A stretch of 64,000 nucleotides of DNA, taken from assembly GCA_050250255.1 (NCBI GenBank), contig JBFWOZ010000007.1, positions 9,200-73,199 of the forward strand, in the 5' to 3' direction. Position 1 is the stretch's first letter. Every line of letters begins with the position of its first letter. The DNA comes from Bdellovibrionales bacterium (GTDB lineage: Bacteria > Bdellovibrionota > Bdellovibrionia > Bdellovibrionales > DASUEL01). Positions 3,601-61,057 of the stretch are shown here, one piece after another. The position numbers and the translations under genes are program-made. The notes under the pieces were generated by a model. The model did no database searches. It was not told the origin of the DNA and saw only the letters and a list, made by a program, of their open reading frames with translations.

Positions 3601-4053
3601 ATGAAATGTTTTATGACTTTAATGGCTTTTGTTGTTTCGGGCTCAGCTCTTGCTAGTGAAGATCAAAGTCGATTTGAACAAGCTAAGGTTGGTGGATCTA
3701 AGTTTGTCACACCGCTGTCTTCTCTTATCTGTGAAAGAAAACATGAGAGCGGTGGTGTCCTGATAGAGCTTAAAAAAATAGCAGGTCAAACCTTTCATTA
3801 TAAAAAAATTGTTCGTAGCGGAGTGAGGGTGTACGGGGTCTATTTTCCAAAGGTTACTCTTATAGAAGATGTTGTGGAGTGCGAGCAGAATAAGGAAGAT
3901 AGCGCGAAGGTTGCATGTCGCTCTCCAGATCGGTGGACCTCTGTCAGAACAAATGATCCAGAAACGAATGCACAGCAGATTCATGTCAGTACGGGCGATA
4001 GACAAGAAATACGTATTGTAACATTTGAACGACGAGAGTGCTCTGTAAAGTAA
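3601..4053 (+). CDS. small secreted four-cysteine protein (paralog A)
   Basis: ATG 3601 is preceded by GGAAGAGG. Signal peptide MKCFMTLMAFVVSGSALA. It has four Cys in the same pattern as the next ORF. No family recognised. Confidence 0.6.
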   Translation: MKCFMTLMAFVVSGSALASEDQSRFEQAKVGGSKFVTPLSSLICERKHESGGVLIELKKIAGQTFHYKKIVRSGVRVYGVYFPKVTLIEDVVECEQNKEDSAKVACRSPDRWTSVRTNDPETNAQQIHVSTGDRQEIRIVTFERRECSVK

Positions 4054-7171: not shown

Positions 7172-7839
7172 ACTCGGATCTTCTCCTTCAAGTTCGCTCT
7201 GTGTCTAAATCCTTTGTTCAAGGTACAAATCGCATTGAAGTTTTAAAAAATTTAGAACTTTCTGTGCGCAAAGGAGAAACCGTTGCCATTCTTGGTGAGT
7301 CAGGAAGCGGAAAGTCCACGCTTTTGTCACTCCTGGCGGGCTTAGACAAACCAGATAAGGGAAATATTCTCATCGACAGTTTTGATATTAGTCAAATGAG
7401 CGAAGCGGAACTAACCAATGTGAGGGGACAGCTTTTAGGTATGGTGTTTCAGCAATACCATCTTATCCCAAGCCTCAATGCTTTAGAAAACATTAGCCTC
7501 CCTCTTGATATTCAAAAACAGGTGGATGCGGAAGTCCGTTCAAAAAATGCCTTGGCGCAGGTGGGTCTTTCTCATCGAGCGTCGCATCTTCCGCATCAGA
7601 TGAGTGGGGGAGAATGTCAAAGAGTGGCGATTGCTCGGGCGATTGTACCACGCCCTCTTCTTTTGTTGGCCGATGAGCCCTCAGGAAATTTAGATGTGAA
7701 CACCGGAACCCATGTTCTTGATATGATGTTTGACATCATTAAAACAAATCACATGACGGCACTTTTTGTCACCCATAGTGAAGAAGTCGCCAGACGATGT
7801 CAGCGCCGCGTACATTTGAAAAATGGCCAATTAGTATGA
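7168..7839 (+). CDS. ABC transporter ATP-binding protein (YbbA/LolD-like)
   Basis: Walker A GESGSGKST, signature MSGGECQRVAIARA, Walker B LLLADEPSGNLD. ATGA overlap with the tesA-like stop. Confidence 0.85.
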   Translation: MNSDLLLQVRSVSKSFVQGTNRIEVLKNLELSVRKGETVAILGESGSGKSTLLSLLAGLDKPDKGNILIDSFDISQMSEAELTNVRGQLLGMVFQQYHLIPSLNALENISLPLDIQKQVDAEVRSKNALAQVGLSHRASHLPHQMSGGECQRVAIARAIVPRPLLLLADEPSGNLDVNTGTHVLDMMFDIIKTNHMTALFVTHSEEVARRCQRRVHLKNGQLV

Positions 7840-10412
7840 AATTGATTTTAAGGTTGGCCTGGAGAGAAATCAGGTCACAACCCAAATTCACTCTTTTTTT
7901 CGTCCTCAACATCGCATTTGGTATGTTGGGATTTTTTTCGCTCCTGTTATTAAAACAATCCATGGAAGAGGCGATTGAAACTCAATCACGGGCGATGTTA
8001 TCTGCAGACATCAGTGTTTCTGGCCGACGTGCTATCACCGAGGAAGAAGAAAAAAAGTTTGTCACGGTGATTGAAAAATTAGATCAAGGGTATGAACCGC
8101 AAAGGCGTACCGATATCGTTGAAATGTTTTCGATGTTAGCCAGTGACTCAGAGAAACAAAAAAAATCTTTACTCGTACAAGTCAAAAGTATTCAAGAGGG
8201 TTTTCCGCTTTTTGGAAGTGTACAATTAGAAAAATTTGGATTGTTGAGTTCGGGAAAAAGACCTGCACATCTTGGAACCTACCCACCCATGTGGGTGTAT
8301 CCAGAGATTTTGCCTCAGCTGGGTTTAAAGTTGAATGAACTTGTGCGTTTGGGAGAGCAAACATTTCAGGTGTCGGATCTGGTGCAGAAGGATATCGGTA
8401 CGGCATTTCGTCTTCTCTCGCTAGCTCCAAAAGTTTATATTCAAAGTCAGGATTTAGAGCGCACTGGTCTTATTCGATTTGGTACCACAAGTACTAGTAC
8501 TCTCTTTTACATTTTAAAATCTGCACCCGCGGAGTTAGTGGAAAACGAATTGCAAAAAGTTTTGCTTGATCCAGGGCTCGATGTGCGAAGTCACAAGACG
8601 GCGAGTGAGCAGATGAATCGTCTCATCAGCTATTTAAGCGATTATTTAGCGCTTGCGGCCGTTGTGGGTCTTTGCCTCTCGTCGCTCGGAACAGGTTTTC
8701 TTTTCCGTAATTATATAAATAAACGCTTCAAGGATATCGGAATTTTTATTTCTTTAGGGCTATCGCGCTCAAAAAGTGCTTTGGTTTTTGTCGCCGTTGC
8801 TTTTTTGTTGAGTTTAGCAGCGCTACTGCTGAGTACGATATTTTCCATCACAGTGAGCCCGTTTTTACTTAATCTTGTAAAGGCCTTTACGCCTTTTGAT
8901 CTTCATTTTAGTTTTGCTTTTGAGAATGTGTTTTTTTTCTTTCTTTTTTGTTTCGTGACTGTGGCTCTCTCCTGCGCTCCGGTTATTCTTAAAATACAGG
9001 ATTTAAAACCTTCGGGTCTTTTTCGTGAGCATGAATATGCAACGATGTCTCACAGCCTTAAGCCATGGTTGGTATTTCCTATTGCTTTGGCCGTTTTATG
9101 GGCCGTGGCCATTTGGCAAACACAATCTCCTCGTGTGGGAAGCATTTTTGTTGCAAGTTTCTTAGGCTCCTTTTTGCTGATTTATTTTTTCGCTCGATGT
9201 TTATTTTATCTTATCGCACGCCTCCCTCAGCCACATAATATTCAATGGAAAATCGCTTTCCGAAATATTGTTCGCATGGGGCCGGGAGTGCTCGAAAGTT
9301 TTTTATGTTTAAGCTTAGGATGTCTTCTCATGAATCTTATTCCGCAACTGCAAACCAGTATCCGCTCTGAAATTACGCAGCCGGAAAGCTTAAGCTTACC
9401 GAGTTTTTTTCTTTTTGATATTCAGCCAGAGCAAGTTGAGCCTCTCCAACAATTAGCAAAAAAGCATCAGTTTCAACTAGAGGCACTCTCACCACTCGTG
9501 AGAGCGAGGCTTGCGGCCATCAACAATCAAACTTTTCAAAAATCAGAAGAGAACGAAACGGGGCAGTCTCGCGAAGAGCAGCGAAACAATAACTTTAGAA
9601 ATCGTGGTTACAATCTCACGTATCGTGAATCCCTCAACTCGAGCGAAGTGATCATTGCGGGGCGTCCGTTCAGTACCCAAAAAGAGAAGGAGGCGGAGAT
9701 CTCTGTGGAGAAAGATTTCGCAAGCAGACTGAATCTTAAGCTTGGGGATAAGTTGAGTTTTGATATTCAGGGTGTTCCTATTGAAGGAAAAATCGTAAAC
9801 CTGAGACGGGTAAAGTGGAACAGTTTTCAACCCAATTTCTTCGTTGTTTTTCAATCTGGTGTGTTGGAAGAAGCGCCGAAGACATTTCTTGCGTCGATTC
9901 CGAGTCTCCCTCGCGTGCAGAGAGGTGTGCTTCAATCAGAACTGGTCTCGCAGTTCTCTAACGTTTCTATCATTGATGTAGAGAGAGCTATTCAACAAAT
10001 TTTGGAACTCACAGAGCAGATGTCGTGGGCGCTCTTTTTTATGGCAGGTCTTTGTATTCTTTCGGGGCTTGTCGTGCTTTATTCGGTGGCCAATTTGCAG
10101 GCTTACAACCGACGCTGGGACTACACGATGTTAAAAATCTTAGGTAGTAAGTTGAGTGATCTTCGCAAGAGCGTGCTGGTGGAGTATGGAGGCATGGCTT
10201 TCCTTGCGGCCCTCATTGGTGCAAGTATTAGTCTGCTTATGAGCTACGTACTGTCGATTTATATTTTTGATGGATCTTTTGAATGGAATACCTGGTCTTT
10301 TGTCCTGTCGATAGCCGCAGTCATTGTACTGAGCCTGTTGGTGGTGTGGATTGCTACCTATGTTTATTTGAAGGAAAAGCCAGGTCGCTATTTATTCAAC
10401 CGAGATCTTTGA
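7836..10412 (+). CDS. ABC transporter permease, FtsX-family double-domain (YbbP-like)
   Basis: About 860 aa with two blocks of 4-5 TM helices separated by a large soluble domain. Start taken at ATG 7836 (MKLILRLAWREIR), which forms an ATGA overlap with the ATPase stop. The ORF track starts at 7797. Confidence 0.75.
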   Translation: MKLILRLAWREIRSQPKFTLFFVLNIAFGMLGFFSLLLLKQSMEEAIETQSRAMLSADISVSGRRAITEEEEKKFVTVIEKLDQGYEPQRRTDIVEMFSMLASDSEKQKKSLLVQVKSIQEGFPLFGSVQLEKFGLLSSGKRPAHLGTYPPMWVYPEILPQLGLKLNELVRLGEQTFQVSDLVQKDIGTAFRLLSLAPKVYIQSQDLERTGLIRFGTTSTSTLFYILKSAPAELVENELQKVLLDPGLDVRSHKTASEQMNRLISYLSDYLALAAVVGLCLSSLGTGFLFRNYINKRFKDIGIFISLGLSRSKSALVFVAVAFLLSLAALLLSTIFSITVSPFLLNLVKAFTPFDLHFSFAFENVFFFFLFCFVTVALSCAPVILKIQDLKPSGLFREHEYATMSHSLKPWLVFPIALAVLWAVAIWQTQSPRVGSIFVASFLGSFLLIYFFARCLFYLIARLPQPHNIQWKIAFRNIVRMGPGVLESFLCLSLGCLLMNLIPQLQTSIRSEITQPESLSLPSFFLFDIQPEQVEPLQQLAKKHQFQLEALSPLVRARLAAINNQTFQKSEENETGQSREEQRNNNFRNRGYNLTYRESLNSSEVIIAGRPFSTQKEKEAEISVEKDFASRLNLKLGDKLSFDIQGVPIEGKIVNLRRVKWNSFQPNFFVVFQSGVLEEAPKTFLASIPSLPRVQRGVLQSELVSQFSNVSIIDVERAIQQILELTEQMSWALFFMAGLCILSGLVVLYSVANLQAYNRRWDYTMLKILGSKLSDLRKSVLVEYGGMAFLAALIGASISLLMSYVLSIYIFDGSFEWNTWSFVLSIAAVIVLSLLVVWIATYVYLKEKPGRYLFNRDL

Positions 10413-10418
10413 GTATGC

Positions 10419-10598
10419 AGGGCGTGTCCATACTTAGATTTTGGCTGCAAAAGTCATCTTCCTTCGCAGAAAATTGCTGCTCGTCTGCGATTTTCTGCGA
10501 CTTGGCTACGGCCAAGCCTCAAAAATCTTGTCTGCGCCTCAATTTTCTACTCGAAATCTGAACTTTTTCGCTTCAAAATCTAAGTATGGACACGCCCT
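10419..10598. repeat. 180-bp palindromic intergenic element with 24-bp perfect terminal inverted repeats
   Basis: agggcgtgtccatacttagatttt (10419-10442) is the exact reverse complement of 10575-10598. There is an internal 11-bp perfect hairpin (10464-10474 / 10490-10500). A central hairpin cttggc-tacg-gccaag (10501-10516) sits exactly at the element midpoint. Confidence 0.85.
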
Positions 10599-10601
10599 AG
10601 G

Positions 10602-11219
10602 ATGGAAATTACCTATTTTGATAACTACGAAGCTTTAAGTGCATCGGCGAATGAATGGTGTCGTGAAAAAATTCAGACCCACAAAGCGAAGAGTCTTTAC
10701 GTTCCCGCTGGCCAAACACCTATTGGCCTTTATCATCTTTGGGAAGAGACAAAACCAAATTTTTTAAAGTCCATTCAGCTCATTCAGATTGATGAAGTGA
10801 TTCAAGGGAACAAAAAAGATCTCTTCAAAAGTTTCTTTGAACAAGAGCTTCCTTCTTTTAAAAAACAAATTGAGTTTATAAAAGACAAACCACATTATGC
10901 GGATCTAGGCGTTCTTGGTTTGGGTACTAATGGACATGTGGCTTTTCATGAGCCGAGTGTGGACCCGGCCTTTTCTTTTGGGTATGTGGACCTCTCTGAA
11001 TCTACCAAAAAACATTTGGGAATTGAGGGCACTGCCGAGGCTGTTTCCTACGGGGTGGGGGCCTTTCTCAGGACTAAGGCACTTCTCCTTCTCATTAGCG
11101 GTAAAAACAAGAAACTTATTTTTGATCGTTTAATAGCAGGGGAAGACAATATCCCGGCTGTTTGGCTGACCTCCCATGAACGCTTGGATGTCTATGTAGA
11201 CCAGAGTTCCATCACTTAA
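10602..11219 (+). CDS. glucosamine-6-phosphate deaminase / 6-phosphogluconolactonase family protein (short form)
   Basis: 205 aa. GLGTNGHVAFHEP matches the NagB/Pgl family signature (G-x-G-x-[DN]-G-H-x-A-[FS]-x-x-P). Confidence 0.7.
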   Translation: MEITYFDNYEALSASANEWCREKIQTHKAKSLYVPAGQTPIGLYHLWEETKPNFLKSIQLIQIDEVIQGNKKDLFKSFFEQELPSFKKQIEFIKDKPHYADLGVLGLGTNGHVAFHEPSVDPAFSFGYVDLSESTKKHLGIEGTAEAVSYGVGAFLRTKALLLLISGKNKKLIFDRLIAGEDNIPAVWLTSHERLDVYVDQSSIT

Positions 11220-14252: not shown

Positions 14253-14459
14253 ACGTTCCTCATCAAAGTCGAATCTTGTACCTAGATATAAGAATACCGG
14301 GGAACTGGACCTTTGTGTTGTAGCAGCTTGAGACTGACTAAAAGTTTAATAATAAATTATGAAAATTTGATGAAACTTCGTACACACATTTGTGAATGCT
14401 CTTGTTTATCGGGGGCTTACGGAAAAACAAAGGGAAATATAAAATCTCAATTTGAGAGA

Positions 14460-14615
14460 GGTTGGAGGTTTGGGGTTTATCGTTTGAGGTTTGTCGTACC
14501 GTTAGAGGTTTACCGTTTGAGTTTTCGGTTGAGTACCGCCTGAGATTTAGACCTCCAACCTCCAACCTTTAAACGGTACCTCAAACCCTAAACCTCAAAC
14601 GACAAACCTCCAACC
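14460..14615. repeat. mosaic GT-rich / CA-rich imperfect inverted repeat (long hairpin) just 3' of the kynB operon
   Basis: Perfect complementary blocks occur in antiparallel order: 14460-14472 with 14603-14615 (13 bp), 14480-14492 with 14590-14602 (13 bp), and 14496-14503 with 14572-14579 (8 bp). The arms are built from GGTTKGAGG-like units. Confidence 0.75.
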
Positions 14616-14621
14616 GTAAAC

Positions 14622-15251
14622 CTATGTCGTCACCAACACCGCTCTAACAGGAGAAGCATCCGCGCTAGCAATCTTCAACGGCATCGCAATCAACGTATAG
14701 TTACCAGGCTGTACATGAGCAAGAACAAGTCCTTCGAGATTCACAATTTGATTTTTCGAAATCGCTTGATGGCTTTCAAGAATTTTGTCAGCAAAAGGGT
14801 CAATGGAAGGAGTGTCGATTCCTATCAGGAGCACGTTCTTTTCGGACAAAAATTCAATCAGCTCGGGTGAAAGACTATTGAAATCTTCATTGAAATGATT
14901 GGGATCGGGAAAGGAATTTGTTTTGAGGAGTATTCTCTGCGAGGTGATGGATTCTTTTAGATCTTGAACTTGGATTCGCTTTCCTCGAGGGATATTCACT
15001 TCTAGCACCTGACAGTGACCGTAATAAGGTTCGAGCTCCATACGATCAATGCTCGGACCACTTCGTAGGTAGTGAGAGCGGGCGTCGGCATGAGCACCTA
15101 AATGTACGGTTGTATGAATAGAACTGAGTCCAATGTTCGCGCCTTGCTCCATATCTAACGAAATGTTGCGAGTAAAAGGCGTATCGCCTGGCCAAACCGC
15201 AATCTTTTCTGAAATGAGTGGCGAAATATCAATGAATTGGTTCTTCTTCAT
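14622..15251 (-). CDS. kynB: kynurenine formamidase (cyclase family)
   Basis: 209 aa. It has IDISPLISEKIAVWPGDTPF, HLGAHADA (the HxGTHxDxP-type metal motif) and C-terminal ADASPVRAV. It matches Bacillus/Pseudomonas KynB along its whole length, from memory. Confidence 0.8.
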   Translation of the reverse strand: MKKNQFIDISPLISEKIAVWPGDTPFTRNISLDMEQGANIGLSSIHTTVHLGAHADARSHYLRSGPSIDRMELEPYYGHCQVLEVNIPRGKRIQVQDLKESITSQRILLKTNSFPDPNHFNEDFNSLSPELIEFLSEKNVLLIGIDTPSIDPFADKILESHQAISKNQIVNLEGLVLAHVQPGNYTLIAMPLKIASADASPVRAVLVTT

Positions 15252-26089: not shown

Positions 26090-27733
26090 ATGAAAGAATT
26101 TTCGAGCCAAACTCGTAGTGAAAACCTCCAGAAACTTTCTGAAGAAAATTTTGATTTGTTGATTATTGGCGGTGGGATCACGGGTACGGGTGCCGCACGA
26201 GATGCTGCGAGCCGAGGCTTAAAGGTTGCGCTCATCGACGGCCAAGATTTTGCCTCGGGCGCGAGCTCACGATCGAGCAAACTCATTCATGGTGGTATTC
26301 GTTATCTCGAAAACTATGAATTTCATTTAGTTTTTGAAGCACTTAATGAGCGACAACGTTTATTTCACATCGCCCCTCATCTCGTTCATCCTCTGAAGTT
26401 TGTTCTCCCGCTCTATGAGGGGGACCGCGTCACTCCATTTCTCATGGGAATTGGAATGTGGCTTTATGATGCGCTCGCACTGTTTGATGTGCCAATGCTC
26501 CATTACTTTATGGGCCCTCGAAGTACGAAACGTGAGATTCCAAGTCTGCAAACAGATGGTTTAAAGGGTTCTTATGTCTATTCTGATGCGTACATGGATG
26601 ACGATCGACTCGTGATCGAAACCTTGCGCTCGGCTCATCAGTGGGGAGCCACAGCGGTGAACTACACCAAAGCGATCGGTGTAGAAATGCAAAATGGAAA
26701 AGTGGTGGCCGTTGATTGTCGCGATGAAAAAACAAAAAACACTTTTAAGATCAGAGCCAAACATTTTATTTCGACTGTAGGTCCGTGGACCGATATTTTA
26801 GGTCAGGATTTACTCAAAGATTGGAAAAAGCTTCTTCGACCAACAAAGGGAATTCATCTCACGTTTGAACAACATCGCTTTCCTTTGAAAGATGCCGTGG
26901 TTATGTCCACTCGAAATGATAAGCGCATTGTTTTTGGAATTCCTCGCCACGATATGGTGATTGTTGGAACGACAGACACCGCCTACCAAGAGCATCCAGA
27001 AAAAGTTTCGGCGACACGAGAAGATGTCGAATACCTTCTTAAAATTGTGAATAGTTATTTCCCTGGTGCAAAGCTCACCACAAAAGACATCGTAGCAAGT
27101 TACGCAGGCGTTCGTCCGCTCATTGATGACGGCGCCGAGACCGAGAGTAAAACCAGTCGCGAACATCTCATCAAAAGTGATCCACGCAACATCACATTTG
27201 TGGCGGGCGGGAAATACACAACCTACCGCTACATGTCGCAGCAGACGATCGATGCAGCACTTGAAAACTTTGATCACGAAACTCGAAGTCGTTTGCAAAA
27301 GAGTCAAACCGAGTTGCCGCTCAATCCTGCCGCGAGCACGGACAATATCTGGAGAAGTTTGCGAGAAGTGGACGGGCTTGCTCAAGAATATGGACTCAAA
27401 CCTTCGAGCGTAGAATGGCTCATTCGTCGACACGGTTATGAAGCACAAAATCTTTTAGCAATAAAAACCGAGCAAGACCCTGATCTCGCCATTTGGCAAA
27501 TGGAGGTGATTCAAGCGGTACGATATACAATGTGTCTGCACCTATTGGATTTTTATGTTCGAAGAACTCCACTGATGTTGTCGCGAAGAGATCACGGCAT
27601 GGGACTCATCGATGCAATCGCTCAATATTTCAGCCAAGAGCTCGGCTGGTCTGAAAATCAAAAAAGAGCTGAAGTTGAATCGGTAAAACAGTTCATTCTC
27701 ACCGAATACCGCTGGCGCACCACGAAGTTCTAA
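26090..27733 (+). CDS. glpD: FAD-dependent glycerol-3-phosphate dehydrogenase
   Basis: DLLIIGGGITGTGAARDAASRGLKVALIDGQDFASGASSRSSKLIHGGIRYLE is the characteristic GlpD N-terminus. 547 aa. Confidence 0.85.
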   Translation: MKEFSSQTRSENLQKLSEENFDLLIIGGGITGTGAARDAASRGLKVALIDGQDFASGASSRSSKLIHGGIRYLENYEFHLVFEALNERQRLFHIAPHLVHPLKFVLPLYEGDRVTPFLMGIGMWLYDALALFDVPMLHYFMGPRSTKREIPSLQTDGLKGSYVYSDAYMDDDRLVIETLRSAHQWGATAVNYTKAIGVEMQNGKVVAVDCRDEKTKNTFKIRAKHFISTVGPWTDILGQDLLKDWKKLLRPTKGIHLTFEQHRFPLKDAVVMSTRNDKRIVFGIPRHDMVIVGTTDTAYQEHPEKVSATREDVEYLLKIVNSYFPGAKLTTKDIVASYAGVRPLIDDGAETESKTSREHLIKSDPRNITFVAGGKYTTYRYMSQQTIDAALENFDHETRSRLQKSQTELPLNPAASTDNIWRSLREVDGLAQEYGLKPSSVEWLIRRHGYEAQNLLAIKTEQDPDLAIWQMEVIQAVRYTMCLHLLDFYVRRTPLMLSRRDHGMGLIDAIAQYFSQELGWSENQKRAEVESVKQFILTEYRWRTTKF

Positions 27734-27789
27734 AAGGTACGGACACACTTTTGGGACTTGGTGCGTCCCAAAAGTGTGTCCGTACCTTT
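27733..27789. terminator. perfect 25-bp stem / 7-nt loop hairpin exactly filling the gap between convergent genes
   Basis: aaaggtacggacacacttttgggac (27733-27757) is the exact reverse complement of 27765-27789. Each arm overlaps the adjacent stop codon by 1-2 nt. Confidence 0.7.
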
Positions 27790-57419: not shown

Positions 57420-58190
57420 TTACAAAATATGAGCGCCGCTATCCACAAACATCGTTGTGCCGGTGATGTGTCGTCCACCTGGTCCGCAGAGGAAGGCACC
57501 TAAGTGACCAACGTCATCGGCAGAGATATTTTCTTTAAGCGGAGTTTTTTCTGCAGCCGACGAGAGCATTTCACGGAAATTACGAACGCCAGCAGCAGCC
57601 AATGTTTTCACGGGTCCTGCGGAAATCGCGTTCACACAAATCTTCTGTGGTCCAAGATCGTAAGCTAGATATCTCACGCTGGCTTCAAGTGCTGCTTTCG
57701 CAACTCCCATGACGTTGTAATTTGGGACAACCTTTTGGGCTCCCAAATAGGTCATTGTTAAAATAGTTCCACCATTTGGCATAAGAGGTTCGGCATGTTT
57801 CGCAAAAGGAATGAGAGAAAATGCACTCACATCAAGTGCGAGCCGAAAGCCTTCACGACTTGTGTTTACAAAGCGGCCATCGAGTTCTTCTCGGTTGGCA
57901 AAAGCCACCGAGTGAATGACCGCGTCCAGTGTGCCCCATTTTTTCTTTGTGGTTTCAAAAAGTTTTGCGATGTCTTCGTCTTTTGCGACATCGCAAGGTT
58001 CGATTAAAGTGGAACCTAAGCTTTCTGCAAGAGGGCGGACGCGTTTTTCAAGGCGCTCATCTAAATATGTAAACCCTAATTCACAGCCAGCCGCATGAAG
58101 TTGTTGGGCGACCGCCCAGGCGAGACTACGTTCATTCGCAACACCGACGATCAAGGCTTTTTTGCCCTTCATTGTTTCTGACATGTTCAA
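57420..58190 (-). CDS. fabI: enoyl-[acyl-carrier-protein] reductase (NADH) FabI
   Basis: ALIVGVANERSLAWAVA, NYNVMGVAKAALEASVRYLA (Tyr-x6-Lys) and ISAGPVKTLAA are FabI signatures. 256 aa. Confidence 0.9.
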   Translation of the reverse strand: MNMSETMKGKKALIVGVANERSLAWAVAQQLHAAGCELGFTYLDERLEKRVRPLAESLGSTLIEPCDVAKDEDIAKLFETTKKKWGTLDAVIHSVAFANREELDGRFVNTSREGFRLALDVSAFSLIPFAKHAEPLMPNGGTILTMTYLGAQKVVPNYNVMGVAKAALEASVRYLAYDLGPQKICVNAISAGPVKTLAAAGVRNFREMLSSAAEKTPLKENISADDVGHLGAFLCGPGGRHITGTTMFVDSGAHIL

Positions 58191-59305
58191 ATTCCTTTCA
58201 CGATTTCCACAACTTTTTCCACACCTTCAAGCCCTGACCAGAGTGGCAGTCGTACCACGCGTTCACTAAGATCATCCGTAACTGGAAGTGCGCCATTGGT
58301 ACGACCAAAGCGTTCTCCTGCAGGTGACGAGTGAAGTGGGATGTAGTGGAAAGCGGCTGTGATTTCTTTTTTCTTAAGTTGCTCAATAATGGATTCACGA
58401 ATTTTATGTGTGGGTGCGATCATGTAAAAAATGTGAGCGTTGTGTTCGCACTCTTGGGGAATCGTTGGGAGTTTGAAATCTCCCTTTTCTTCGAGAGGTT
58501 TGAGAGCTTTGTAGTATTCATCCCACACTAACATGCGCCCTTTTTGAATCTCTTGAGATCTTTCAAATTGCGCAAGTAGCAAGGCTGCTAACAAATCGCT
58601 ACAGATGTAAGAAGAGCCTACGTCCATCCAAGTGTAGAAAGCGGTCTCTCTTCGAAGAAAGCTTGTACGGTTCGTTCCTTTTTCGCGAATGATCTCGGAA
58701 CGTAGCAGGTAACTCTCGTCATTTACGACAAGAGCGCCACCTTCTCCAGAGACGAGATTTTTTGTTTCATGAAAACTGAAAGTACCAAAATCGCCAAGAG
58801 TACCAAGAGCTTTCCCTTTGTAGCGAGAGAGCACGGCCTGCGCGGCATCTTCCACTACGTAAAGATGATGTTTTTTGGCGATCGCAAGAATTTTATCCAT
58901 CTCGCAAGCAACGCCTGCGTAATGAACAATAAAAATCGCTTTTGTTTTGGGAGTGATATGCGCTTCGATGAGATTCTCGTCGATATTCAAGATATCGGGC
59001 CTGATGTCGACAAATACCGGTGTTGCCCCACGAAGGACTACGGCGTTAGCCGTCGAAACGAAAGTGAAGGAAGGCATGATCACCTCATCGCCCGGTTCTA
59101 ATTCACAAAGTAGAGCCGACATTTCAAGAGCTGCGGTACAGGAGTGAACAAGAAGAGCTTTTTTTGCTTTCGTTTGCGACTCGATCCACTGTTCACATTT
59201 ACGCGTAAAGGACCCATTTCCTTTAATCTGGCCAGATTCGAGGCAGGTCTTAATATATTCCATCTCTTTGGAAGAAAGGGAGGGTTTCGTGAACTCTATT
59301 GCCAT
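58187..59305 (-). CDS. DegT/DnrJ/EryC1-family PLP aminotransferase, WecE/RffA-like (dTDP-4-amino-4,6-dideoxy-sugar transaminase)
   Basis: The N-terminus ...EMEYIKTCLESGQIKGNGSFTRKCEQWIE parallels E. coli WecE (...GSGKLCGDGGFTRRCQQWLE). FHETKNLVSGEGGAL carries the PLP lysine. ATGA overlap with fabI. Confidence 0.75.
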   Translation of the reverse strand: MAIEFTKPSLSSKEMEYIKTCLESGQIKGNGSFTRKCEQWIESQTKAKKALLVHSCTAALEMSALLCELEPGDEVIMPSFTFVSTANAVVLRGATPVFVDIRPDILNIDENLIEAHITPKTKAIFIVHYAGVACEMDKILAIAKKHHLYVVEDAAQAVLSRYKGKALGTLGDFGTFSFHETKNLVSGEGGALVVNDESYLLRSEIIREKGTNRTSFLRRETAFYTWMDVGSSYICSDLLAALLLAQFERSQEIQKGRMLVWDEYYKALKPLEEKGDFKLPTIPQECEHNAHIFYMIAPTHKIRESIIEQLKKKEITAAFHYIPLHSSPAGERFGRTNGALPVTDDLSERVVRLPLWSGLEGVEKVVEIVKGI

Positions 59306-59313
59306 AGGGGGTG

Positions 59314-59342
59314 AATATAGAACTCATCTCACGAATAGGCAA
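59314..59342 (-). promoter_or_regulatory. candidate sigma70-type promoter of the wecE-like/fabI unit (leaderless or near-leaderless)
   Basis: On the minus strand it reads TTGCCT (comp 59337-59342), a 17-nt spacer, then TATATT (comp 59314-59319). The -10 box ends 8 nt before ATG 59305. There is no SD. Confidence 0.5.
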
Positions 59343-59583
59343 GGCCCGACGATTTCTAATGGTTTCAATATCGAGGCGCGAGGAGGAGGCATAGCGGTCC
59401 TATGCCGACGACGAGTAATGAAGAGATTGAAACCATTAGAAATCGCCCAAAGGGTTCTTCGCTCTTTCCTAGAACTTTTCGTTACTTCTCCTCAAAATAG
59501 CACCACTATTTTTCGTCGTCGCGCCTCAATTTCTAGAAAAGAGCGAAGAATCGGGTCTTGCCTATTCGTGAGATGAGTTCTAT
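59317..59583. repeat. 267-bp mirror-symmetric nested-palindrome element
   Basis: The 27-bp perfect termini are 59317-59343 and 59557-59583. Inner pair 1 is 59350-59369 / 59426-59445 (20/20). Inner pair 2 is 59455-59474 / 59531-59550 (19/20). Both 56-nt loops are mutually reverse-complementary at 40/56 positions. The centre cccaaaggg (59446-59454) lies at the exact midpoint. Confidence 0.9.
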
Positions 59584-59586
59584 TAA
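59558..59586 (+). promoter_or_regulatory. candidate sigma70-type promoter of the GT2 gene (leaderless or near-leaderless)
   Basis: TTGCCT (59558-59563), 17-nt spacer, TATTAA (59581-59586). The -10 box ends 9 nt before ATG 59596. There is no SD. Confidence 0.5.
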
Positions 59587-59595
59587 GTGTGTCTC

Positions 59596-60417
59596 ATGCA
59601 AAAGCTTTCTGTCGTGGTCTTAAGCTATAACCATCCATTACACACTGCGCGAGCGGTGAGGTCGGCTTTGCAATGGAATCTCCCAGTTTTGCTCGTACAC
59701 AATGGCAGTCTTTCCAAGCATGTGGAGCTTTTAAAAAAAGAGTTTCAGGAAACTTCACAATTCACACATTTGGTTCTTCCTGAAAATAAAGGTTATTCCG
59801 GCGGAGTGAATGAGGGTCTTTATGCGGCCACTTCTGAGTGGGTGATTTTTCTGACAAATGATTGTGAGCTACTGAGTGTACCGAAACTTCCTTTAAAGCC
59901 AATGGCGGTGATCCCCCAAGTTTTTCGTAGATCTCTCAATCAAATTGATTCTATAGGTGGTCTCTTTGAACCAACGAGCGGAAAGCTCGTGCACTGTAAA
60001 ACCAAAGAAGATTTTGAAAATCCTGACGCAAAATGGTCGCCCTACATTCCGGGTTCAAGCTTTCTCGTGCATCGCGAGGTGTTTGAAAAAACAAAAGGGA
60101 TGGATGAGAGTTTGGGAACCTACTGGGACGACGTCGATTGGTCCCTCAGAATTCAAAAAATGAATTTCCCTATCCAGCTTCAAGAGCAATGGCATGTGCT
60201 TCACTACGTAGGAAAAACTTGCCAAAAAAATCCGCTCTATTCCATTTACTATTTCCAGAGAAATCGAAAAAAGATTTCCTGGAAATACACAAAACCTTCT
60301 GAGAAACCAAAACTATGTTTCGCCTTAGCTAAAGATTGGACCCGCTTAAGTCTCAATCTCATTTCTAAAAAACGCTACTCCGACTTGCGCTTGATCAAGC
60401 GCGCTCTTTTTGAATAG
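59596..60417 (+). CDS. glycosyltransferase family 2
   Basis: MQKLSVVVLSYNHPLHTARAVRSAL is the typical GT2 opening. TNDCELL and YWDDVDW resemble DxD-type motifs. ATG 59596 is preferred over GTG 59587 because 59581-59586 looks like a -10 box. Confidence 0.7.
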   Translation: MQKLSVVVLSYNHPLHTARAVRSALQWNLPVLLVHNGSLSKHVELLKKEFQETSQFTHLVLPENKGYSGGVNEGLYAATSEWVIFLTNDCELLSVPKLPLKPMAVIPQVFRRSLNQIDSIGGLFEPTSGKLVHCKTKEDFENPDAKWSPYIPGSSFLVHREVFEKTKGMDESLGTYWDDVDWSLRIQKMNFPIQLQEQWHVLHYVGKTCQKNPLYSIYYFQRNRKKISWKYTKPSEKPKLCFALAKDWTRLSLNLISKKRYSDLRLIKRALFE

Positions 60418-60471: not shown

Positions 60472-60693
60472 ATGAGCGTGAAAGTTTCCCCTAAATACCA
60501 AGTCGTGATCCCTGAGCAGGTTAGGCAAACCCTTAATATTCGTCCTGGCATGGAAGTAGATGTGATCGCAAAGGGTGGTATTGCCTATATCGTTCCTGTC
60601 CCAACGGTGACGTCGCTTCGTGATAAAGTGAAAGATTATCTTTCTGCTTCTGACAAAAAGACGTTACGTGAAAAGAAAGACCGGAAGTTTTGA
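60472..60693 (+). CDS. vapB: AbrB/MazE/SpoVT-family antitoxin (VapB-like)
   Basis: SPKYQVVIPEQVRQTLNIRPGMEVDV is the SpoVT-AbrB swapped-hairpin motif. 73 aa. Confidence 0.75.
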   Translation: MSVKVSPKYQVVIPEQVRQTLNIRPGMEVDVIAKGGIAYIVPVPTVTSLRDKVKDYLSASDKKTLREKKDRKF

Positions 60694-60694
60694 T

Positions 60695-61057
60695 ATGGTT
60701 GTCGACAGTTCCGTTTGGCTCGAGATTTTCTTAGAAGGGGAAAAGTATAAAGAGTGCGAAAAACTTATAAAAAAAGAAACTCTCTATGTTCCGAGTCTCA
60801 TCCTTTTTGAACTTTATAAAAAAATTAAAACAAAAGTATCAGAAGATATCGCACTTGAGTGCGTCTCGCATTTAAGCCAGCACACCGTAGTGGATCTAAC
60901 GCGAGACGTGGCTTTACTTGCCGGCGACTTATCACTCGAATATAAACTCGCAATGGCCGATAGCGTAGTGCTCGCTCATTCGCGGCTTCTTTCATGTCCT
61001 CTTGTCACCTTAGACAATGATTTTTCTTCTGTACCTGGAGTTCTCGTCGTCAGATAG
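60695..61057 (+). CDS. vapC: PIN-domain toxin (VapC-like)
   Basis: Start at ATG 60695, 1 nt after the vapB stop. MVVDSSVWLEIF carries the first acidic residue. LAMADSVVLA and TLDNDF carry the later acidic residues. Confidence 0.75.
   Translation: MVVDSSVWLEIFLEGEKYKECEKLIKKETLYVPSLILFELYKKIKTKVSEDIALECVSHLSQHTVVDLTRDVALLAGDLSLEYKLAMADSVVLAHSRLLSCPLVTLDNDFSSVPGVLVVR

Follow-up and report, generated by a model that had tools for sequence, protein, structure and literature searches.

A nested palindrome filling a divergent DegT/GT2 spacer of a Bdellovibrionales bacterium, probably one copy of a dispersed repeat with a G.A-rich core shared across phyla

Positions 59317-59583 of the window, by which we mean the whole 64,000-nt stretch of Bdellovibrionales DNA analysed here, form a nested palindrome of 267 nt that fills the 290-nt spacer between two divergent genes, one for a DegT/DnrJ/EryC1-family aminotransferase and one for a family 2 glycosyltransferase (GT2). 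We were curious to know whether this palindrome belongs to its two neighbours as a site that regulates them, or whether it is a member of a larger family that happens to lie between them. In our judgement it is probably one copy of a dispersed, non-coding and non-autonomous palindromic repeat, similar to MITEs (miniature inverted-repeat transposable elements) or to REPINs, which are built from repetitive extragenic palindromic (REP) sequences.

The outermost layer of the palindrome is an inverted repeat of 33 nt (59317-59349 with 59551-59583, 32/33 complementary), inside which lie two hairpin modules. Stem S1 pairs 59350-59369 with 59426-59445 at all 20 positions and can be extended to 23 nt (59350-59372 / 59423-59445) at 96%, and stem S2 pairs 59455-59474 with 59531-59550 at 19 of 20 positions, with an extension to 23 nt (59455-59477 / 59528-59550) at 91%. 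[quoted passage not shown] Each loop holds an inner hairpin, GGCATA-N7-TATGCC at 59388-59406 and AAAATA-N7-TATTTT at 59494-59512, the blocks GAGGAGGA / GACGACGA swap sides between the two loops, and the centre at 59446-59454 reads CCCAAAGGG. All of these parts, from stems, loops and inner hairpins to the swapped blocks and the centre, lie where the original prediction had placed them. They are listed here together with the scores of R1, the covariance model of the module family that is described below.

59317-59349, no strand: left outer arm, called the A arm in the original prediction; its position and length match the outer repeats of 11 other dimers (24-34 nt)
59551-59583, no strand: right outer arm, 32/33 complementary to the left arm
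59350-59445, plus strand: module 1, type I; R1 match at 59355-59441 (+), 81.3 bits, E = 2e-19, antisense 11.4 bits
59350-59372 / 59423-59445, plus strand: P1 stem of module 1
59371-59387 (5' strand) and 59407-59425 (3' strand), plus strand: G.A-rich helix of module 1
59388-59406, plus strand: P2 hairpin of module 1
59445-59456, plus strand: centre, GCCCAAAGGGTT, which holds the mini-hairpin CCC-AAA-GGG seen in the fold
59455-59550, minus strand: module 2, type II; R1 match at 59459-59545 (-), 80.5 bits, E = 3e-19, antisense 8.1 bits
59455-59477 / 59528-59550, minus strand: P1 stem of module 2
59529-59513 (5' strand) and 59493-59475 (3' strand), minus strand: G.A-rich helix of module 2
59512-59494, minus strand: P2 hairpin of module 2
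59318-59319 and 59581-59582, no strand: left and right TA dinucleotides, a possible TA target-site duplication as read from the sequence

If the TA dinucleotides are a target-site duplication, the element proper would possibly be 59320-59580 (261 bp). Folding of 59306-59597, as DNA or as RNA, gives a T shape composed of an outer stem and two arms. The DNA fold reaches -82.2 kcal/mol, compared with -33.3 +/- 3.4 kcal/mol for shuffled sequences (z = -14.2), the RNA fold has a z-score of -13.9, and for both 0/200 shuffles were as stable. Because S1 and S2 are unrelated, the window element can fold only as a T. Like a MITE, it is small, has terminal inverted repeats and lacks coding capacity, the only open reading frame (ORF) across it (59268-59576, 102 aa) being a mechanical call that spans the palindrome. 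The arm sequences have no further occurrence within the 64-kb window, where shuffles indicate that none is expected by chance, and an identical sequence of the element is present in one metagenome Logan contig.

Relatives of the core were searched with the pattern TYGAGGCGCGASGASGA, the longest stretch common to both loops, over one genome per species (596 Gb). The scan returned 120 loci, mostly chance matches in GC-rich genomes, for which an estimate of several hundred was obtained in a collection of this size. About one quarter of the returned loci hold a complete 56-nt unit; there the 3' half, GA-S-GA-S-GAGYAACGAAGAG, is present too, with complementary stems on the flanks, and both features lie outside the query. 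With the covariance model R1, a total of 51 modules was then recognised at E < 1e-4, spread over 31 loci and no fewer than seven phyla. According to the record titles, and for Vulcanimicrobiota to a taxonomy look-up, the hosts are Bdellovibrionota (loci L031, L039, L063 and L118), Acidobacteriota (many loci), Myxococcota (L011, L054 and L120), Lysobacterales (L035 and L112), Planctomycetota (L097 and L103), Patescibacteria (L049 and L052) and Vulcanimicrobiota (L020). The original prediction had made its case depend on whether further copies exist and repeat the compensatory pattern of the two loops, and many copies do reproduce it. Core I of the window is identical to a Polyangiaceae core at 46 of 56 positions, as against 40 of 56 for its own partner, core II; it is therefore nearer to that core than to its neighbour, and by this sequence comparison we take the two window modules to be old paralogues and not a recent local duplication. 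An invertible promoter switch was also considered and dropped, as the 50-56 nt between the 20-bp repeats are too short for looping and the loops are, by the same counts, ancient paralogues and not flipped copies.

Each module consists of a variable stem P1, a conserved G.A-rich helix and a variable hairpin P2. The helix follows the formula UCGAGGCGCGA-S-GA-S-GA ... GA-S-GA-S-GAGYAACGAAGAG, in which Watson-Crick pairs alternate with tandem G.A mismatches. The consensus of alignment A2 (22 modules aligned with MAFFT and folded with RNAalifold) is one continuous hairpin which comprises, from the outside inwards, P1, U-A and C-G pairs, the G.A-interrupted run and P2, and within the run the single Watson-Crick pairs G21-C71, G24-Y68, C25-G67, S28-S64 and S31-S61 are separated by tandem G.A/A.G. 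Both window modules are members of this family, with P1, G.A core, P2 and complementary S positions, S28-S64 and S31-S61 being paired in each. The compensatory changes that the original prediction had noted in the inner hairpins thus extend further than it supposed, since the GAGGAGGA / GACGACGA swap is itself a G-C to C-G covariation at two pairs (GC:11 and CG:11 at each in A2).

In A2, 80.0% of the cells were paired, compared with 56.3% after shuffling (0/500 reached the observed value) and 28-44% with slid partners; in the R1-based alignment of 50 distinct modules the values were 85.2%, 57.4% (0/500) and 27-46%, respectively. In the latter alignment, double changes were found at 23 of 25 pairs, and the two S-S pairs were counted as GC:28/CG:20 and GC:26/CG:21. 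Two modules of mixed type, L035:7542-7628 (-) with (C,G|C,G) and L072:2653-2740 (-) with (G,C|G,C), keep both S-S pairs, which is why we regard the S-S pairing as real and not as two alternative box sequences. These counts bear out the earlier proposal of selection on an intrastrand fold as opposed to a decaying duplication. They also speak against the dyad-symmetric protein site that had been offered alongside it: such a site gives no explanation for stems of arbitrary sequence that keep their pairing, and stems that vary this freely are excluded for a sequence-specific protein site. The selected fold is that of one strand of each module, the GA-rich strand, as single-stranded DNA (ssDNA) or as RNA, because G.U pairs outnumber A.C pairs by 67 to 29, the sense strands score about 81 bits with R1 and the antisense strands 8-11 bits, and the G.A mismatches would be C.T on the other strand.

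The arrangement of the two modules is conserved as well. At 14 further loci R1 matched the same dimer as plus-then-minus pairs, 17-21 nt apart. Its layout begins with an outer inverted repeat and a type I module, continues through the GCCC-NNN-GGGTT centre to a type II module in inverted orientation and closes with the outer repeat. Every dimer is composed of one type I (GG|CC) and one type II (CC|GG) module, and if the type I module is placed on the left, the centre of these 14 dimers always reads GCCC-NNN-GGGTT; in the window it is GCCCAAAGGGTT, and there, too, type I stands to the left of the centre and type II to its right. The other dimers are 257-282 nt long in total with outer repeats of 24-34 nt, compared with 267 nt and 33 nt in the window. 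For GC-rich dimers, the energies predicted for the T shape and for an extended hairpin are similar. The Acidobacteriota modules belong to a repeat of about 272-276 nt, which occurs in many near-identical copies with the layout of the window element, and at least seven of these dimers are near-identical including their outer repeats (five loci of one metagenome-assembled genome (MAG) plus L017). The outer repeats differ among lineages, several of them beginning with (C)TAG and finishing with CTA(G). The ends read aTA|GAAC...GTTC|TAt in the window and cTA|G...C|TAg in the Acidobacteriota, L114, L035 and L031 elements, and these sequences would fit a TA (or CTAG) target duplication.

Two dimers have in turn been split by other insertion sequences. 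In L044 (6443-7909) the modules are separated by an IS3-family element with orfA/orfB and an rve domain, and in L072 (960-2740) by an IS5/IS1182-like element with a 425-aa transposase; the dimer centre may be an insertion hot spot. These module pairs, 1.3-1.6 kb apart, had been taken for candidate autonomous elements and were rejected, given that they are dimers split by unrelated insertion sequences, and the gene between two inverted modules in L031, a candidate transposase, turned out to be rseP.

We then turn to the locus itself. Relatives were found via the GT2 protein, to which theirs are 52-67% identical, and are too distant for reading the exact insertion junction. Their corresponding spacers are short and give no R1 match: the DegT-GT2 spacer measures 55 nt in L147, about 76 nt in L146, at most 62 nt in L149 and 92 nt on the P0003 contig, while in L150 the 81-nt spacer adjoins a DegT remnant and on the P0004 contig the spacer is 62 nt long with DegT absent. 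Since relatives with the DegT/GT2 pair have spacers of 55-92 nt and no element, this sequence comparison indicates that the window copy is an insertion relative to related genomes. L150 is the closest relative whose DNA was compared (GT2 67% identical). It has lost DegT except for about 17 5' codons (MAIDFTKASISSREKELL) and the -10 box (549-602), beside a FabI-like gene, and reads TATATT followed by CACTCCCATGG before the remnant, where the window reads TATATT followed by CACCCCCTATGG. The context CAC(C/T)CCC(T)ATGG after the -10 box is kept in L150, which has no element, and because of this conservation the DegT -10 box and start appear to be native, with the element supplying the upstream part.

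In other genomes the modules lie in unrelated places, for example between uppS-cdsA, rseP and tsaB, between accB and accC, and between HlyD-like (macA-like) and ABC transporter (macB-like) genes, and the Bdellovibrionota monomer L063 fills a divergent spacer upstream of rsmH. The copies occupy intergenic spacers between housekeeping genes in either orientation, and in the few clear cases no orientation bias with respect to the flanking genes was apparent.

The genes that flank the window element are the following.

58187-59305, minus strand: DegT/DnrJ/EryC1-family aminotransferase gene, left neighbour (Pfam PF01041, E = 2e-94)
59596-60417, plus strand: GT2 gene, right neighbour (Pfam PF00535)

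The GT2 is 100% identical to an NCBI Bdellovibrionales MAG protein, and the NCBI protein P0001 begins at the ATG at 59596. A Shine-Dalgarno sequence is absent from both DegT and GT2, and both are therefore probably leaderless. The only sigma-70-like match of a promoter scan is on the minus strand, TTGCCT (59342-59337) and TATATT (59319-59314) with a 17-nt spacer, and TATATT ends 8 nt upstream of the DegT ATG. The right arm carries TTGCCT (59558-59563) and, after a spacer of 17 nt, TATTAA (59581-59586), which lies 9 nt upstream of the GT2 ATG; the scan demands a final T in the -10 hexamer, so that TATTAA fails. The mirrored promoters of the original prediction are the terminal inverted repeats of the element, of which only the left one passes the scan. 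As shuffles of the region yield 1.0 +/- 1.0 promoter-like sites per about 700 nt, the DegT promoter match alone is weak evidence. The scan found no internal promoter within the element. Five other Bdellovibrionota elements contain no promoter-like site, for which reason an element-borne promoter was rejected as a trait of the family. Directly downstream of GT2 lie genes for a MazE-like antitoxin and a PIN-domain protein (60472-61057), and within the GT2 coding region a 45-nt hairpin (60247-60291) gives a weak, stem-only R1 match (13.5 bits, E = 0.34) that is probably due to chance.

Seen as a dispersed repeat, the element has a terminal inverted repeat that is lineage-specific and about 33 bp long, and a conserved body of about 200 nt in which the two different modules stand in inverted orientation with the small GCCC-NNN-GGGTT hairpin between them. 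We propose that the modules are cis-acting structures which are read in single-stranded form by a mobilising enzyme acting in trans, and that either end of the element, followed inwards, displays the same hairpin, as do REP doublets with their REP-associated tyrosine transposases (RAYTs) or the hairpin ends of IS200/IS605. The differing arms (S1 versus S2, the P2 hairpins and the two types) may keep the element from being a long perfect palindrome. The filling of the divergent DegT/GT2 spacer would be a local consequence of insertion: the left terminal repeat presumably supplies a -35 box at 17-nt spacing from the pre-existing DegT -10 box, and the interior hairpins, being upstream of both promoters, are probably untranscribed from them.

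Several observations weigh against this picture. No Y1/RAYT-like ORF was found in the window or in any module-bearing locus when YafM and IS200 TnpA were used as phmmer queries against all ORFs of the window and 150 loci. The window outer repeat has no other copy within 64 kb, and a 21-mer from it gave a single chance match in the JGI metagenomes, in a phage-like coding region. The target-site duplication is ambiguous, as CTAG is a palindrome and two Acidobacteriota copies have no TA/CTAG flank, and excision of 59320-59580 together with one TA leaves a 27-nt spacer, shorter than the 55-92 nt of the relatives. Bdellovibrionota monomers have near-perfect stems of 53-62 bp with unrelated sequences, for which simple copying and decay offers no explanation, and a core that is conserved across phyla while the termini vary is the opposite of typical MITEs. 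Finally, the 5' 17-mer is identical in all scan matches by construction, so that part of the apparent conservation is ascertainment bias. R1 later recovered partner modules with a diverged 5' stretch, such as GGTCGCGAAGAGAGGAGGAGG, and conservation outside the query extends to P1 and P2, the core's 3' strand, the motif at the centre, the inter-module spacing of 17-21 nt, the total length and the outer repeats.

The sole hit of the phmmer search was in L028, a locus without a module. This RAYT-like Y1 transposase gene of a Dokdonella MAG (7362-7991) contains the 17-mer and is followed by a masked run of N; the 17-mer was considered as a module and rejected as coincidental, given that it encodes LRREED and shows no further similarity. 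The only hint of a mobilising gene is a PF01797 (Y1_Tnp) gene beside GT2 in the relative GCA_041443025.1, where it stands in place of the MazE-like/PIN genes, and no autonomous element was found among the module-bearing loci. Of 24 matches to the 17-mer in IMG/VR viral contigs none is a module, and blastn of the module and of the whole element against PLSDB plasmids gave no match. Neither a full-text literature search with four core 15-mers, which matched no paper, nor a keyword search, which brought up general REP and MITE papers only, led to a description of the family.

Beyond the single locus, we tentatively suggest that the G.A-rich module may be a hitherto unrecognised, cross-phylum class of structured element, a conserved recognition structure in single-stranded form (ssDNA or RNA) for a widespread machine. 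A structure-specific HUH-type transposase, a retroelement or an RNA-processing factor may be that machine, the modules having spread in lineage-specific inverted-repeat shells. The heterodimer of fixed polarity (type I, GCCC-NNN-GGGTT, type II) may then be the functional unit, and the copy-specific 55-60-bp stems in Bdellovibrionota may reflect hairpin-templated propagation or repair.

An action of the module as RNA is a rather doubtful alternative. The module would in that case be a cis-acting mRNA element (a processing site, a decay barrier or a Rho-dependent attenuator) or a small structured RNA; such mRNA roles are those proposed for REP/BIME and ERIC sequences, and the palindromic dimer would give, from either direction, a transcript with a GA-rich sense module followed by a C/U-rich antisense module. 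The strand-specific covariation with its excess of G.U agrees with this, as do the tandem G.A motifs, which are classic RNA building blocks, and the many copies inside probable operons between co-directional genes (cdsA|rseP, accB|accC, macA|macB), and a dimer that is alike on both strands fits an orientation-independent function. G.T wobble and sheared G.A pairs, however, are stable in ssDNA too, and monomers occur in both orientations relative to their neighbours. In the window both neighbouring genes are directed away from the element, for which neither an inward-facing nor an internal promoter is predicted, so the sense modules are probably untranscribed, yet they are intact at 81 and 80 bits. 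Rfam is silent as well: Rfam 15 gave no hit at gathering score in the window, a permissive search (E <= 10) of 59300-59600 returned only generic miRNA-hairpin matches far below threshold, and among 14 homologous loci the elements had no hit, the only find being an unrelated Acido-Lenti-1 pair.

It is improbable that the stems were made at insertion by inverted duplication of flanking host DNA, or that a core was inserted into host palindromes. The route envisaged is fold-back or hairpin-primed synthesis around the core, which here possibly included the A arms. Three modules of one Pseudobdellovibrionaceae MAG, as well as others, have a conserved core within unrelated near-perfect stems of 53-62 bp, a length matched by the sum of S (23 nt) and A (33 nt) in the window, 56 nt, and the left A arm sits where the native DegT promoter lies in L150. 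On the other hand, the outer repeat of Acidobacteriota is identical between copies and hence part of the repeat unit, an outer repeat of 24-34 nt is found at the same position throughout the family, and the Bdellovibrionota stems share the terminal motif (C)TAGGGYGTGT and inner-end motifs.

Least probable of all is a regulator specific to this locus, in which both promoters would share dyad-symmetric sites for an activator or an operator, or else a supercoiling sensor of the cruciform type. For it one could cite the position exactly between divergent genes, the promoter-like arms within 8-9 nt of the start codons and the divergent spacer of the related L063. The original prediction's activator or repressor sites and its supercoiling sensor are contradicted by the distribution, as the same modules and dimers are found in unrelated contexts and phyla, have many copies in Acidobacteriota MAGs and are absent from the orthologous DegT-GT2 spacers. 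Against them, too, stand the other five Bdellovibrionota elements, which lack a promoter-like site, and the arms of 20-23 bp spaced by 50-56 nt, which are unlikely to extrude as cruciforms from duplex DNA.

As a dispersed palindromic repeat, the element invites comparison with several known systems, the closest being REP doublets, i.e., the bacterial interspersed mosaic elements (BIMEs) of enterobacteria and the RAYT-mobilised REPINs of Pseudomonas. These are likewise intergenic, non-coding imperfect palindromes that occur singly or as inverted dimers (PMC3733652, PMC3116915). BIMEs, like the dimer here, combine two different kinds of unit (Y and Z REPs) through a conserved spacer (L/S motifs), and in REP doublets, too, one dimer orientation predominates, two hairpins or one long hairpin are possible, and the copies are numerous and serve as landing sites for other insertion sequences. 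A REP is defined, however, as an imperfect palindrome of 20-40 nt that carries a GTAG (or CGTC) tag at its end (PMC3733652), whereas the modules here, at about 95 nt, are too long and have neither a consistent GTAG by the stem nor a CGTC tag. Besides, the conserved part is an internal G.A-rich helix instead of stem and tag, an additional terminal inverted repeat of 24-34 bp encloses the dimer, the core is conserved across phyla while REPs are species- or genus-specific, and no flanking RAYT gene is seen. Di Nocera et al. described TIRYT genes, which are RAYT-like and have long inverted repeats ('TIR' repeats) on their flanks, some of these being double-palindromic; the repeats form families in Acidobacteria and Stenotrophomonas (PMC3733652). 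Likened by description only, these repeats are a lead for the window family.

Correia elements (CREE, Neisseria) and ERIC/IRU sequences (enterobacteria) likewise measure 100-300 bp, have terminal inverted repeats, are non-coding and lie in intergenic or operon spacers. Correia elements, which are characterised by a 26-bp terminal repeat and an IHF site, have TA-flanked ends with outward promoters at the TA junction, similar to TTGCCT-17-TA|TATT here, a resemblance confined to the TATAG... terminus and the TA flank, and ERIC resembles the window family in a conservation between genera that is unusually high. Sequence similarity to either is not known, however, and their termini are conserved, in contrast to an internal structured core with varying termini, a spread across phyla and a T-shaped heterodimer of fixed polarity in the present family. 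In shape only, the element can be compared with the T-shaped or forked hairpins of HUH and recombinase systems, namely the inverted terminal repeat of adeno-associated virus (A-B-B'-C-C'-A'), the left and right ends (LE/RE) of IS200/IS605 together with PATE, and the attP of CTX-phi: they also have an outer stem around two unrelated palindromes in a T fold, purine-rich repeats beside the hairpins and one active strand, whereas the element here is chromosomal, lies between housekeeping genes and contains no recognised Rep, TnpA or Xer site motif. The Rfam motif Acido-Lenti-1 (RF01687) is likewise a small hairpin and occurs, at the module-bearing Lysobacterales locus L035, as an inverted pair with a further hairpin at the centre, but its sequence and model are unrelated, and the window element and its homologues do not match it. 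In that MAG two Acido-Lenti-1 hairpins lie inverted around a central hairpin at 3769-3946, and by its sequence this 'sRNA' motif also looks like a REPIN-type palindromic doublet.

Other hairpins and repeats are present in the window. A 180-bp hairpin element at 10419-10598 fills the spacer between two ORFs that run in the same direction, 7797-10412 and 10602-11219. Its inverted repeat, AGGGCGTGTCCATACTTAGATTTTG, is perfect over 25 bp, at the termini, CAGGGCGTGT...ACACGCCCTAG, it agrees with the L063 element, which bears a core, and in its interior the minus strand reads ATTGAGGCGCAGACAAGA ... GACGAGCAGCAAT, a diverged version of the core; R1 gives it only 10.8 bits, and its fold has a z-score of -10. 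A perfect 25-bp stem with a 7-nt loop at 27733-27789 lies between convergent ORFs with runs of A and T on its flanks and probably serves as a terminator in both directions. In its arm the sequence, CAAAAGTGTGTCCGTACC, is similar to part of the stem of the L063 element, CAAAAGTGTGTCTGTAGG, with a stem-only R1 match of 12.5 bits. At 14454-14628 there is a cluster of inverted and direct repeats of GGTTTGAGGTT / AACCTCAAACC-like units, with arms of 39-44 nt that are 79-88% complementary, which is unrelated to the element at 59317-59583.

Locally, a repeat element would thus have replaced the divergent promoter region of genes for cell-envelope sugar modification. For the family, what is new is that a palindromic repeat of the interspersed kind has an internal G.A-helix core conserved across phyla, and a heterodimer of fixed polarity. 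REPs, BIMEs, ERIC and MITEs do not usually extend beyond one species or genus, and what they conserve is their termini. The present family is the reverse, with termini and stems free to change and a 56-nt core that is more than 80% identical from Patescibacteria (the candidate phyla radiation) to Acidobacteriota and Bdellovibrionota. We surmise that this pattern points either to a very widespread partner that reads the structure, or to an RNA or ssDNA function that hitch-hikes on mobile shells, and either alternative would merit a covariance-model family and a search for the partner gene.

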